From Staphylococcus phage Machias, in the sequence record MW349128.1: a stretch of 64,000 nt of DNA; one strand, written 5' to 3'. Of this stretch, positions 47,209 to 51,354 are shown piece by piece. The position numbers and the translations under genes were made by a program. The notes beneath the pieces were generated by a model. It did no database searches. It saw nothing but the letters and a program-made list of their open reading frames with translations, and was not told the DNA's origin. Positions within the stretch are counted from its first letter, which is position 1; the number at the start of each line of letters is the position of its first letter.

Positions 47209-47354
47209 TTATATTTAAAATGGAATATCCAATGACATGAATAGTTGTCATTGGATCCATTCCATTGCATAAAATTATTATTAAATATATATTATAAAGA
47301 TGTGGAATACTATTTCATATTATCTTTTATATTACAGGGAGAGTGTTTATAGGA

Positions 47355-48472
47355 TGACAAAGGAAAGAACACAAAGAATGCAAGAGATTGAAGATAAGAA
47401 AAGTCATGAATTTTTATCGGAACTACTATTAATGCCTAATGTTAATAGAACTAATGGTAATAGATCACAAATGTTCACTTCACATATAGGTCAATGTATT
47501 CAATTAACTGAAGCTGAACCTCCATTAATTCAAACTGGTTTTGAGAATCAAGTAGGTAAATATTCAACTGGTTATAAGAAAGCTGAAAGAGATTTTGAAG
47601 TTATTTTTATATTTGAAAAGAATAAATATGTAAAATACTATTTAGTGAAGTATAAAGATAATGATGAGTATGATGTTATTATTAGAGAAGAAGCTAATCA
47701 TTTAGCTGAAAAGTTCGGTAATAAATATCAAAATGAAAAAATTGATTCTTTAGAAATTGGTAGTACTGTTGATAAAAATGAAGTACTTTATAAAGATCAA
47801 AACTATGATGAAGAATCAAATAATTTCCAATATGGTACAAACGCTACTTCAGTATTTTTACCAGATAAAGGATTCACGAATGAGGATGGTATAGTCGTAT
47901 CAGAATCATTAGCTGAGAAAATGTCAAGTTATTTCGTTCATGTAGTTAATGTAACTATAAATACAAATGATATTCCTTTAAATATTTATGGAGATGAAGA
48001 ATATTATAAAGCATTTCCAGACGTTGGTGAAGAAATTAAAGATGGAATATTAACAGCTACTAGAAGATTAAACTATGATGAGTTAATTCATAAGTTCAAA
48101 AATGACATGTTATCTAAAGTTATTGAAAGTGATAACGCTTATAAATTACATGGTAAAGTTATTGATATTGATGTACTTAACAATGAATCAATTGAAAAAT
48201 TAGAGAATGAAAAGTACTCAGAACAATTCTTAAAATATATCAAAGATTTAGAACACTTCTATCGTACATTTGTAACTGTTACTGACGATATTGTACGTAA
48301 GAAGAAATTTAGTAATGATTTAATTAGAACTTATAATAGATTTAAGAGCTACATTGACCCTAATGCTAAACTTGTATATGATGGAAATCAATTTGATAAA
48401 ATCGTATTTAGAGTTAAAGTATTAGAGAAGAAACCTTTAGTGCATGGGAGCAAAATAAGCACAAGATACGGT
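47355..48472 (+). CDS. Multisubunit RNA polymerase beta subunit, C-terminal half, exon 1
   Basis: Aligns to bacterial beta from ..GNRSQMF/AEPPLIQTGFE (ANMQRQAVP/ADKPLVGTGME) through FLPDKGFTNEDGIVVSESL (FMPWNGYNFEDSILVSE) to ..GSKISTRYG (GDKMAGRHG). Start at the ATG after RBS GGGAGAG. The beta N-terminal half is not in this window (split beta). Confidence 0.8.
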
Positions 48473-48646
48473 ATTTCATCTGCCGCATGAAGTTGCAAAA
48501 TTTCAATGAAAAATCTTTTAATTGCTGAGAAAATTAGAATTAATCAGCATCACTAAAAATAGTGTTCAACGACTAAATAAAGTTAATCTAATATAGATTA
48601 AGATATAGTCTGATCTTATAATGTAAAATTATAGTTAACATAGATG
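48473..48646 (+). mobile_element. Ultra-compact group I intron F (174 nt) inside the RNAP beta GRHG|NKGV catalytic-region motif
   Basis: Exon ends ..UACGGU; guide sequence GCCG at positions 10-13; P2 GAAGUU-GCAA-AAUUUC (GNRA). P/Q/R/S core at 48518-48611 with P6 CACU..AGUG and P8 UUAAUCUA..UAGAUUAA. P9 UUAUAAU..AUUAUAG; ends ..UAACAUAGAUG|. Splicing gives TRYG|GKGVVAKI, matching [12 protein letters not shown]. Confidence 0.7.
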
Positions 48647-49154
48647 GGAAAAGGTGTAGTAGCTAAGATTGTTCCAGATAATGAAATGCCAATGATTACT
48701 GAATTTGATGGAGAAGATTTCACAAAAGATAATAAAACCCCTATTAAGAAAAGAGTAGACTTAATTCATAATAATATGGGTATTATTAATAGAGGAAATC
48801 CTTCAGCATTAGTAGAATTAGAATTAAATCATATTTCAAGCGTTATTAGACATCGTATTAGTAAGTTAGATGATGTTAATAAGCAAAAAGAATACTTATT
48901 AGAATATATCAAAGATGCAGATAAAGTATCTTATGATAATTATGTAAAATTATTTGATAGTTTAGATGGTGAAGAAACTAAAGAAGCTATTGAAGACTTT
49001 ATTAAAAATGGTATTGTACTTCATCAAGCTCCTTTCTTTGATAATATTGAATCTGAACAAATTAGATACTTATTCAATAAATATAATATTAAGAAAAACC
49101 GACTAGATGTTAGTAATAGAACATTTATGGTTGGAGATTTGTATCACCTGAAGT
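48647..49154 (+). CDS. RNAP beta, exon 2
   Basis: GKGVVAKIVPDNEMPMITEFDGEDFTKDNKTPI..VDLIHNNMGIINRGNPSALVELEL aligns to [46 protein letters not shown]; ends ..VGDLYHLK (VGYMYMLKL). Confidence 0.8.
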
Positions 49155-50319
49155 AAAGACAAATTATGTTTTAGCTTCCTTATATTGGTAACAATAAATG
49201 AAAAATCACTTTAATTGCTGAGAAGCTTTAAAAGTAATCAGCATGCTAATTAATTATATTAAAATCCTTTCTATTGGTCTGGAAAGGTGAAGAGATGCCA
49301 GTACAGAAATATTATACAAAAGAAGAATTTATGGAAGAAGCATCAAAAAGAAAAAGTGTTAAAGGTTATAAAATGCTAACTGATTATGAGAAATCTCATA
49401 ACAAAATAAAATTTTTACATGAAACGTGTGGAAATGAATTTTGGATGGTTGCAGGTAAATTTAAAAATAAAGGACAGAGATGTCCTAAATGTGCAAATAA
49501 AGATAAAATTATATCTAAAAGATTTACAGAAGAAACATTTAAAGAATATTTAAAAAATGAATTAAATGGAGAATATTCTTTAATGGATAATTTTAAAACT
49601 GTTAATGATATTAACACTTTTCTTCATAATAAATGTAAAAACACAATAAAGTTAAAACCTAGAGATATTAGATCAGGATATGGTTGCTCATACTGTTCTG
49701 GAAATAAAAAATTGAATATTGATATAGTAAAAGAAAAAGTGGAATTAATGAGTAAAAAAGAATATTCAGTATTATCTAATGAATACAAAAATGTCCATAA
49801 CAAATTAAAAATGATTCATCATGAATGTGGTTTTAAATTTGAGATGAATTATAATAATTTTAGAAACGGACAGAGATGTCCTCAATGTTATCCAGGTTCA
49901 GTATTTCCAAATAGATCTAAAGCTGTTGTAGAAATATATGATTTCCTTAAAGAAAATGGTTTTAATTTTAAAACCGAAGTCTCTTTAAAAGGATTAAAAT
50001 ATATAAATCCACTTAGATTAGATTTCTATATTGAAGAGTTAGATTTTTATTTAGAATATGATGGATCTCAACATTTCAAAGAATCAGGAATTAATGATAA
50101 TGATAGTTTGGAATTGAATCAATTAAGAGATAATATTAAAAATGAATACTGTAAAGAAAATAACTTAAAACTTTATAGAATAAACTATAAACAAGACCAT
50201 TTAAAAGAGATTGAAAATATAATTAAAGAGCTTCAACGACTAAATAAGTGAAAGTCTTGATTAATTTGATCAAGATTTAAGATATAGTCTGGGATCTATA
50301 TGAAATTAATATAGATTCG
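49155..50319 (+). mobile_element. Group I intron G carrying a homing-endonuclease ORF in P6; 3' boundary uncertain
   Basis: Guide sequence GCUUC pairs exon GAAGU (5' splice site after 49154); P2 UAUUG-GUAA-CAAUA. P/Q at 49211-49250, then the ORF, then R/P8/S at 50240-50292 (the ORF ends in ..QRLNK, encoded by CAACGACTAAATAAG). P9 CUAUAU..AUAUAG and ..UAAAACAUG follow. Confidence 0.55.
49295..50251 (+). CDS. Intron-encoded homing endonuclease candidate: three zinc-ribbon repeats plus a C-terminal Vsr-fold/EDxHD (DUF559-like) nuclease domain
   Basis: Repeats F.HE.CG..F.....F..GQRCP.C x3. C-terminal RLDFYIEELDFYLEYDGSQHF resembles the (V)IE(V)DG..H core of Vsr-like EDxHD homing endonucleases. 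RBS GGAAAGGTGAAG. Confidence 0.7.
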   Translation: MPVQKYYTKEEFMEEASKRKSVKGYKMLTDYEKSHNKIKFLHETCGNEFWMVAGKFKNKGQRCPKCANKDKIISKRFTEETFKEYLKNELNGEYSLMDNFKTVNDINTFLHNKCKNTIKLKPRDIRSGYGCSYCSGNKKLNIDIVKEKVELMSKKEYSVLSNEYKNVHNKLKMIHHECGFKFEMNYNNFRNGQRCPQCYPGSVFPNRSKAVVEIYDFLKENGFNFKTEVSLKGLKYINPLRLDFYIEELDFYLEYDGSQHFKESGINDNDSLELNQLRDNIKNEYCKENNLKLYRINYKQDHLKEIENIIKELQRLNK

Positions 50320-50384
50320 TAAAACATGAACCATCAGGTAAATTATTTGCCGTTCTTTATATAAATTAAAGAATTATTAAATTA

Positions 50385-50480
50385 TTAATTGCTGAGAGTA
50401 TTAAAATAATCAGCATCACTTTAAATAGTGTTCAACGACTAAATATAGTTCTTCTATAATATAGAATGAAGATATAGTCT
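50385..50480 (+). repeat. Group I intron core copy H (probably an intron within RNAP beta; see findings)
   Basis: TTAATTGCTGAGAG / TAATCAGCATCA / P6 CACTTTAAATAGTG / GTTCAACGACTAAATAT / P8 / GATATAGTCT. Guide sequence GCCG at positions 10-13 if the intron starts at 50340. Confidence 0.5.
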
Positions 50481-50637
50481 ATACTTTATAAATTATATTA
50501 TAAAGATTAATAAAATAGAAACTCAGTGCAAAATCAATTGACTTTAATAATTACAGTGGTATTCCCACAAGAACACCGGATAAATTTTGTGTCCCATGTA
50601 TTAGAAATAATATGTATGTAAAGAATATTAATTGCTG

Positions 50638-50721
50638 AGAAGAGTATTAAATTAATCAGCATCCTCAAATAAGAGGTTCAACGACTAAATATATTCTACC
50701 TTAAATGGTAATGATATAGTC
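50638..50721 (+). repeat. Group I intron core copy I
   Basis: Core motifs as above with P6 CCTC..GAGG. Upstream, guide sequence GUCC at positions 10-13 of an intron starting at 50582 (exon ..GGAU), and P2 UAUUA-GAAA-UAAUA. Confidence 0.5.
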
Positions 50722-50847
50722 TAATCTATTTTTAAATAAATATAGTTAATATAAATGTCAAAATTTTACAGATCAAGAATAAACAACAATCCTCTCAGAG
50801 TCAAATAAAAGGCTCCGTTATATAGAAATGTATAAATGTAAAGAATA

Positions 50848-50941
50848 TTAATTGCTGAGAGATTATTAAATTAATCAGCATCACTTTAATTAGTGTTCAA
50901 CGACTAAATATAGTCTACCTTAAATGGTAATGATATAGTCT
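50848..50941 (+). repeat. Group I intron core copy J
   Basis: Core motifs with P6 CACTTTAATTAGTG and P8 TACCTTAAATGGTA. Guide sequence GCUC pairs exon GAGU (5' splice site after 50801); P2 UAUAUA-GAAA-UGUAUA; P9 CUAAAUA..AUUUAG; ends AAUAACUG|. Confidence 0.55.
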
Positions 50942-50969
50942 AGCTAAATAATAATATTTAGAATAACTG

Positions 50970-51354
50970 CGGTGAGATGGAAACAACTAACATGATGATC
51001 GGTGGATCTATCAAAGCTATTAATGAATTAACTAATATGTACTCTAATAATGAAGACTTAAGAAAACGTTTATTAGTAGAGTTATATACAGGTAATCCGT
51101 TTAAATTAAATACTACATTTGAAAAGAGATATCAGAATAACAACACTAAAGTACTTAATGCTTACTTTAGTCCATTAAATGTTAGTATTGATTACAATAA
51201 AGCAGAAGAAGAAGATCTTTATTCAATTATGGATCTTTCTCCAGATCAATTAGAGTTCTTAATGGAAAAATTCGAAAATGTGGATGATATTAAAGATTTA
51301 TCATCTAAAGAAATAAATAATTTAGTTAAAGAAATTAAAGAAGATTCAAAATAA
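50970..51354 (+). CDS. RNAP beta C-terminal exon (track ORF 50977-51354 extended to the predicted 3' splice site)
   Basis: Reading from the splice site gives (V)GEMETTNMMIGGSIKAINELT, which aligns to beta (F)[22 protein letters not shown] with identical GEME-N7-G spacing. No RBS before the ATG at 50977. Confidence 0.6.

Follow-up and report, generated by a model that had tools for sequence, protein, structure and literature searches.

A probable minimal group I intron without an open reading frame in the RNA polymerase beta gene of Staphylococcus phage Machias

Introduction

How is an intact RNA polymerase subunit obtained from a gene whose reading frame stops inside its active-centre motif? 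The question is raised by a locus of Staphylococcus phage Machias (sequence record MW349128.1), of which a stretch of 64,000 nucleotides (nt), hereafter the window, was analysed. Here the gene that encodes the C-terminal half of the beta subunit of the non-virion RNA polymerase (AR9 gp089 type) is interrupted at 48473-48646. The original prediction, made from the letters alone, had assigned these 174 nt to a group I intron. We conclude that the insert, which we term I1, is very probably a minimal group I intron without an open reading frame (ORF) in the beta C-terminal mRNA, its splicing being deduced from its anatomy. I1 is a new example of a known thing; an intron at the same site has already been annotated in relatives.

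Results

Exon 1 (47354-48472; all window features described here lie on the + strand) reads ..HGSKISTRYG and closes with the codons AGA TAC GGT, its last base, U48472, being the 5' splice-site U. Beyond 48472 the frame continues for five sense codons (ISSAA), the only coding stretch in I1, and then meets a TGA at 48488-48490, the sixth codon, as the original prediction had stated; I1 has a G+C content of 25% and holds no homing endonuclease ORF. The downstream ORF starts MGKGVVAKIVPDNEMP at 48644 (MGKGVVAKIV..), and exon 2 (48647-49154) begins within it at GGA AAA GGT GTA (GKGVV..) and ends ..LYHLK plus one base. In a tblastn alignment, residues 1-372 of the uninterrupted protein of the related phage PALS_2 (..HGSKITTRYGGKGVVAEIV..) fell on 47354-48472 with 84% identity and residues 373-542 on 48647-49153, with no residue lost or gained at the junction. 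Excision of I1 reproduces the intron-less PALS_2 sequence (..TTRYGGKGVVAEIV..). Furthermore, the DNA of phage vB_StaM_PB50 (PB50), whose neighbourhood is ~97% identical, is uninterrupted and reads TACGGT|GGAAAAGGTGTAGTAGCTAAGATTGT, also written TACGGT|GGAAAAGG.., which is base for base the ligation product predicted on excision of I1 from the window. This ligated junction would read ..AGATACGGT|GGAAAAGGT.. as RNA and ..STRYGGKGVVAK.. as peptide. Protein alignment alone also permits a one-base shift of the boundaries; since only 48473-48646 give an exon-terminal U together with an intron-terminal G, we place I1 there, to the base where it had been predicted.

The window is DNA of an AR9/PBS1-like Staphylococcus jumbo phage, and DNA neighbouring the locus is 97% identical to PB50, 94% to AH12 and 80-85% to S6, PALS_2, MarsHill and Madawaska. 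The beta C-terminal gene lies directly 3' of a UvsX-like recombinase gene, in an order shared by the relatives. Six exons, placed by protein alignment together with the rules of an exon-terminal U and an intron-terminal G, join into a 2139-nt in-frame coding sequence (CDS) for 712 amino acids, with five introns (174, 1165, 179, 176 and 168 nt). The spliced protein matches the solved chain 7S00_C of the AR9 non-virion RNA polymerase over residues 15-664 (E 2.4e-136), continuously across the junction, is also similar to the beta subunits of phiKZ and of bacteria, and scores 40.9 bits against Pfam PF00562 (cut-off 23.4); Pfam searches with the two unspliced pieces of the gene matched no family. 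A 99-residue segment spanning the junction aligns with Bacillus subtilis beta (..RHGNKGV..) and with its Thermus equivalent. These three alignments bear out the earlier claim that TRYG|GKGV matches bacterial beta residue for residue, and they put the intron site between the G and the N or G of the active-centre motif R[HY]G|[NG]KGV, which we take to be the beta segment that contacts the initiating nucleotide (the region of Escherichia coli K1065 and K1073).

The same junction could be read as a truly split gene, in which the 174 nt would be a spacer or a dead intron relic and the products ..STRYGISSAA and MGKGVV.. would assemble in the polymerase. Such a gene would account for the in-frame ATG at 48644 and for the stop that ends the exon 1 frame at the sixth codon of the insert. 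Elsewhere, too, polymerase subunits of jumbo phages are divided (PMC7598289), in these phages beta and beta' are already split into separate genes, and the records of PB50, AH12 and LY01 list pieces of this kind as separate CDSs. However, given that the ATG lacks a preceding Shine-Dalgarno ribosome-binding site (..AAUUAUAGUUAACAUAGAUG), that the break falls inside a motif that is contiguous in AR9 and in all solved beta chains, that the ribozyme core of the insert, described below, is intact, covarying and conserved in independent samples, that the 97%-identical relative PB50 is uninterrupted, and that 'genes' of 20 and 44 nt would be demanded within the same gene, we consider a split gene very improbable.

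The RNA anatomy of I1 is that of a group I intron. The Rfam model RF00028 matches 48465-48634 over its entire length (model positions 1-253) with 40.7 bits, at an E-value of 5e-9 in a 501-nt search and 6.3e-7 in the whole window, and cmscan finds the P, Q, R and S elements (AAUUGCUG, AAUCAGCA, UUCAACGACUAAA and AAGAUAUAGUC, respectively). In P1 (48469-48485), the exon end CGGU (48469-48472) faces the guide GCCG (48482-48485, intron positions 10-13), with a U.G at the splice site. RNAalifold recovered P1 with this U.G in five of five sequences, including G-C to A-U changes, and all five introns of the beta gene combine an exon-terminal U opposite the G of a complementary guide with a terminal G. 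The P2 hairpin (48486-48508) consists of GAAGUU/AAUUUC at 48489-48504 with a GNRA loop, GCAA, and is extended by CAU/AUG in folds; same-site orthologues keep the stem with changed bases and have the loops GUGA and GUAA. P3 pairs AUCUUU (48513-48518) with AAAGUU (48579-48584), a helix that is 96% paired across copies of the family described below; the window copy contains one U.U mismatch, which is U-A in the Madawaska orthologue.

The P element and P4 occupy 48520-48549 (P4 being UUGCUGA/UCAGCA in the cmscan match), and P4, which is 100% paired in 23 copies, encloses a minimal P5 of ~3 base pairs (AAU/AUU, 48532-48541) that is too weak for folding alone in many family copies. Then follow the P6 hairpin (48551-48564), of the form CACU(A)-loop-(U)AGUG, and the R element (48565-48577), comprising J6/7 and the 5' strand of P7, GACUA, which is invariant in 27 of 27 family copies examined. 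The P8 hairpin (48585-48599; AAUCUA-AUA-UAGAUU) is followed by the S element (48600-48610), with J8/7 and the 3' strand of P7, UAGUC; P7 is predicted to form a pseudoknot with P3. In folds, 48617-48633 form the P9 hairpin (UAUAAU-GUAAA-AUUAUA), which same-site orthologues keep with different bases. In all copies P7 and the 3' strand of P3 are separated by AAU only, which means that the P7.1/P7.2 hairpins of the IA2 type are absent from this family; P9 is a single hairpin, and the extended P9.1/P9.2 of IA2 introns are also missing. The guide, the GCAA loop of P2, the P, Q, R and S elements, P9 and the terminal G that the original prediction had listed could thus all be located.

The 3' end fared less well. 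The tail (48634-48646) reads GUUAACAUAGAUG and ends in the terminal G48646; its partner may, tentatively, be the AUCU of J7/9, to form P9.0, or nucleotides 6-9 of the intron. The three metagenomic alleles of I1 described below differ from it by one substitution, G to A, at the third base before the terminal G (AUAAAUG), which weakens the P9.0 pairing of AUCU with AGAU. Of the 3' motif in the original prediction, the tail UAACAUAGAUG is indeed present, but the 11-nt motif differs by one base in these alleles and occurs at chance level (five matches with at most one mismatch versus 3.5 expected). We therefore rejected it as a signature of the family, in which only a loose UAAY after P9 recurs.

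Comparison of I1 with related introns supports several of the helices. The R element TTCAACGACTAAA followed by GATATAGTC was found in 10 copies in the window and in 17 in the beta-gene loci of five relatives. Over their whole genomes, PB50, AH12, LY01, Madawaska and MarsHill hold 8-31 copies each. Copies dissected between these R and S anchors differ in the sequence of the hairpins at the P6 and P8 positions, and the six-pair P3 comes in seven versions. As alignment of the raw introns with MAFFT and RNAalifold misaligned P2, P5, P8 and P9, it was replaced by an N-padded alignment in which the invariant elements served as anchors for 23 ORF-less copies; P5, whose placement was unreliable, was left out. 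In this alignment 94.8% of helix cells are paired, and shifting the partner strand by one, two or three columns lowers the figure to 29-53%. Changes on both sides occur in 15 of 27 pairs, and none of 500 shuffles reached the observed values. Double changes affect four of the six P3 pairs, and compensatory changes three of four pairs in P6 and all six in P8. Thus P3, P4, P6 and P8 covary across the family. The covariation of P6 and P8 that the original prediction had cited stands as well: against CACU..AGUG and AAUCUA..UAGAUU in I1, the copy near 20.6 kb has CAAUC..GAUUG and AACUCU..AGAGUU. The topoisomerase intron cited there is the second of two copies in gyrB, at ~20530-20700, between the Toprim ORF 19075-20538 and the C-terminal part 20722-21462.

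These results also bear on whether the ribosome could hop over the insert in an unspliced RNA, as in the translational bypass of T4 gene 60. In favour, the frame resumes without a shift, and there is a glycine codon on either side of the gap (GGT .. GGA). However, the gap is 174 nt long, whereas the known bypass covers 50 nt with a stop directly after the take-off codon, where the window has ATT, and hopping would leave the match to a ribozyme model and the covarying helices unexplained. We hold this to be the remotest of the readings considered and, like the split gene, rejected it.

The R..S pattern was also sought outside the Staphylococcus phages. A scan of IMG/VR with the full P..R..S pattern gave no match, and the pattern TTCAACGACTAAA-N15-45-GATATAGTC occurs in at least 120 IMG/VR viral contigs, some of them of jumbo-phage size and some from giant-virus bins, and many contigs have it more than once (five times within 2.7 kb in L030:34-2672). 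Because this R..S pattern with a short P8 is so widespread, we regard it as a general group I signature and not as a marker of the family of I1. Tandem compact group I introns may be common in large viruses.

Several observations weigh against a group I intron that splices as proposed. The RF00028 score of I1 is below the curated gathering score of 50, and at that threshold Rfam gives no match anywhere in the window, the introns emerging only with E-value thresholds. We attribute the shortfall to the deletion of peripheral parts, since P8 is aligned with a gap of 48 positions and both P5 and P6 are short; the gathering cut-off is a property of the model and not a biological criterion. I1 folds only modestly better than its shuffled versions (z = -2.1), its G+C content is low, P3 contains the U.U mismatch and P5 has only its ~3 A-U pairs. 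P7 (GACUA/UAGUC) is 100% paired but, because it never varies, draws no support from covariation; most of P4 is invariant too. The alignment was anchored on helix bases by the analyst and so leans towards the structure, and the routes of spread and the protective role proposed below are conjectural.

In view of its base composition and modest folding score, unaided self-splicing of I1 is not assured, and I1 might be a group I intron that cannot splice alone and requires a protein of the phage or its host, such as a maturase, a chaperone or help coupled to translation, for its A+U-rich core. The unstable P5, the P3 mismatch and the low G+C content and z-score would all fit such a dependence, as would the lack of P5abc, P7.1/P7.2 or an extended P9 to stabilise the core. 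In contrast, P2 keeps a GNRA loop from copy to copy (GCAA, GAAA, GUGA or GUAA), which is what tertiary bracing between RNA parts would predict, all elements of the catalytic core are present, and similarly simple bacterial introns, such as that of Azoarcus tRNA-Ile, splice unaided. A need for protein help is, in our view, quite unlikely.

The site of I1 is polymorphic. It is occupied in the window, in Madawaska and MarsHill and in three metagenome or SRA contigs (ENA ERZ28634078, L010:422-612; ENA ERZ27318852, L011:391-581; Logan ERR7446684, L012:1-95), and it is empty in PB50, AH12, PALS_2, S6 and AR9. The exon 2 ORF was matched exactly only on three short metagenome contigs. Downstream, the two ENA contigs carry a 447-residue intron ORF like that of AH12, in place of the 325-residue ORF of the window. 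The homing-type signature that had been proposed for I1 holds insofar as the intron is present in some phages and absent from others within a conserved, essential motif; it fails insofar as I1 has no endonuclease ORF. Nor is the missing ORF an anomaly, as had been suggested, since nine of the ten copies of the family in the window are ORF-less.

Other introns enter the same motif. PB50, AH12 and MarsHill have a small intron seven codons upstream of the I1 site, after ..GGAU, and in LY01 the Tyr codon, 5 nt upstream of the I1 site, is itself interrupted by an intron of 1441 nt with an ORF of phrog_559 ('HNH endonuclease'). With three insertion points within eight codons, we consider this polymerase motif to be an intron hot spot. 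The GenBank records of PB50, AH12 and LY01 list the polymerase gene as three to five CDSs, several of them as 'hypothetical protein', and joined polymerase CDSs are annotated only in Madawaska and MarsHill.

The remainder of the window's beta gene is built in the same way. Intron I2 (49155-50319, 1165 nt) is of the I1 family and contains an ORF, 49274-50251, for a 325-residue protein of phrog_559 ('HNH endonuclease'), the end of which overlaps the R element. Exon 3 (50320-50339) is a 20-nt micro-exon (..LKHEPSG), followed by intron I3 (50340-50518, 179 nt), exon 4 (50519-50581, 63 nt), intron I4 (50582-50757, 176 nt; RF00028 40.4 bits), exon 5 (50758-50801, 44 nt), intron I5 (50802-50969, 168 nt; RF00028 39.6 bits) and exon 6 (50970-51354), which runs to the stop codon.

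Among the other family copies in the window, the first in gyrB is an IStron-like element at 17422-19074. gyrB starts at 17350 and its exon 1 ends ..CGT TCG GAT at 17421; exon 2 resumes with ATG TAC GTT at 19075, and the intron-less S6 reads ..CGT AGT GAT ATG TAT GTT... The 5' part of the element is a group I core of the I1 family, its ORF (17672-18877) encodes a 401-residue TnpB/Cas12f1-like protein (PF07282, PF01385, phrog_506), and its 3' tail of ~200 nt has a higher G+C content and ends ..AAGACAG. A copy of 85% identity stands at a different locus in LY01 (L009:1506-3156), again after CCGGAT. Three further small introns lie in tandem at ~32963-33571 (cores at 33045, 33246 and 33496), separated by very short exons, downstream of the ORF 31295-32980; the homologous region of PB50 is annotated as virion RNA polymerase beta. 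Residues ~127-490 encoded by the gyrase A gene (27618-31172) are an intein (PF14890), like the one known from MarsHill gp228.

The guides of these introns recur. The guide GUCC follows an exon end ..GGAU at at least four loci (50581|50582, 17421|17422, PB50 L002 ~3072, L004 ~3619 and L009 1505|1506), and I1 and I3, the most similar pair (87-89%), both have a GCC(G) guide after ..GGU. That unrelated sites have a guide in common is a hint that insertion may be directed by the guide. We also considered whether the IStron-like intron is closest to I4, with which it has the target GGAU in common, and rejected this, as identities within the family are all 79-89%.

Discussion

The closest counterparts of I1 are the introns at the same insertion point (..TAT GGT | GGA AAA GG..) of the same gene in Madawaska (MW349129) and MarsHill (MW248466). 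These are 178 nt long, against 174 nt for I1, likewise without an ORF, and ~78% identical to it over the first ~136 nt. They agree with I1 in the guide region (AUCAUCUGCC), in P3 and in the P, Q, R and S elements, whereas P5, P6, P8 and P9 differ in sequence and length, with compensatory changes, and the 3' tails are unrelated (..GUGUAAAG versus ..UAACAUAGAUG). The exon flanks of I1 resemble PB50, unlike those of Madawaska. In GenBank the Madawaska and MarsHill CDSs are already joined, at junctions predicted by protein alignment.

Genes for RNA polymerase, DNA polymerase, terminase and gyrase B are disrupted by introns, with variable exon numbers, in MarsHill, Madawaska and Machias, as in AR9 (Korn et al., bioRxiv 10.1101/2020.12.14.422802). 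Since the intron at this site was annotated and the split polymerase genes of the clade were published, I1 is less unusual than the original prediction implied. According to Korn et al., the mature AR9 mRNAs were determined experimentally, and this Bacillus jumbo phage of the same clade has group I introns in split polymerase and DNA-metabolism genes (Lavysh et al. 2016, via Korn et al.). In contrast to the window gene, its orthologue g089 is uninterrupted, and blastn found no AR9 sequence similar to I1. Outside this clade, the gp210 intron of phage PhiPA3, putatively of group I, interrupts a jumbo-phage RNA polymerase beta gene at invariant residues; with its endonuclease it mediates competition between co-infecting phages, which shows that sites of this kind are targeted in such contests (Birkholz et al., Science 2024, PMC11620839). 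It differs from I1 in its site, after the DD motif (E. coli D675), and in its HNH endonuclease, where I1 has no ORF; PhiPA3 itself belongs to an unrelated, nucleus-forming Pseudomonas phage clade. Published IStrons (Tourasse et al. 2014, PMC4227781) fuse a group I intron to an IS200/IS605 element, and their introns, of type IA2, have an extended P9 as well as P7.1/P7.2. The copy at 17422-19074 is like them in its fusion to a TnpB gene, but neither its intron nor the rest of the I1 family has their P7.1/P7.2 and extended P9, and I1 itself has no IS part.

Within Staphylococcus phages, several small ORF-less group I introns in one gene are also known from orf142 of phage Twort, for which Landthaler and Shub reportedly described three self-splicing introns in 1999. 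The Twort introns are of type IA2, with P7.1/P7.2, and ~250 nt or more in length; the ORF-less introns of the window's beta gene, at 168-179 nt and with an AAU spacer, are smaller. The 205-nt Azoarcus intron is the usual benchmark for small self-splicing group I introns. Our literature searches gave no usable published figure for the smallest known group I intron; the small size of I1 may be notable.

Based on the anatomy of I1, we propose the following model for its splicing. First, the exon end CGGU would pair with the GCCG guide to form P1, so that the U.G wobble marks the splice site. Around the invariant strands R and S, the core would fold into two domains, P4-P6 and P3-P7-P8-P9, braced by GNRA-type loops on P2 and probably on P9. 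An external guanosine bound in P7 would then attack after U48472. Subsequently, the terminal G48646 would take the guanosine site and the freed exon would attack after G48646. Joining of GGU to GGA would restore ..TRYG-GKGV.. in the motif lining the active centre of the polymerase.

We believe that I1 may be a selfish element that is rendered harmless by splicing and that would persist because its imprecise deletion would destroy an essential motif. As I1 encodes no endonuclease, recombination between co-infecting phages is its most likely means of spread, for instance by co-conversion together with the intron that lies 508 nt downstream and carries an endonuclease. In addition, I1 may shield its site from the endonuclease of the competing LY01 intron inserted 5 nt away.

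I1 is ordinary for its phage clade, and the TnpB-bearing copy and possible guide-directed spread are more promising. In its full form, the idea would be that the 168-179-nt family is among the smallest natural self-splicing introns and also multiplies, inside one genome and from one genome to another, by guide-directed ectopic insertion instead of endonuclease homing, either through reverse splicing and a phage-encoded reverse transcriptase or by derivation from a TnpB-bearing IStron copy. The density of ten copies per 64 kb, all with the same invariant core but with a different guide per site, the reuse of guides at different loci and the presence of the TnpB-fused copy at two loci hint at such a route; taken as a whole, we consider the proposal unlikely.

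Introns of this family are missed by annotation pipelines because scores of ~40 bits fall under the Rfam cut-off of 50, and as a result an essential polymerase subunit is reported as several 'hypothetical' fragments in PB50, AH12 and LY01. Joining the six exons recovers a 712-residue protein that matches the solved AR9 subunit. If, and only if, splicing is confirmed by experiment, structural work and engineering could draw on this compact and naturally variable family for a minimal group I ribozyme. Finally, I1 is further evidence that selfish introns favour the active-centre motifs of RNA polymerases in jumbo phages. The three insertion points that lie within eight codons among the relatives fit a contest in which, during co-infection, endonucleases are opposed by protective insertions.

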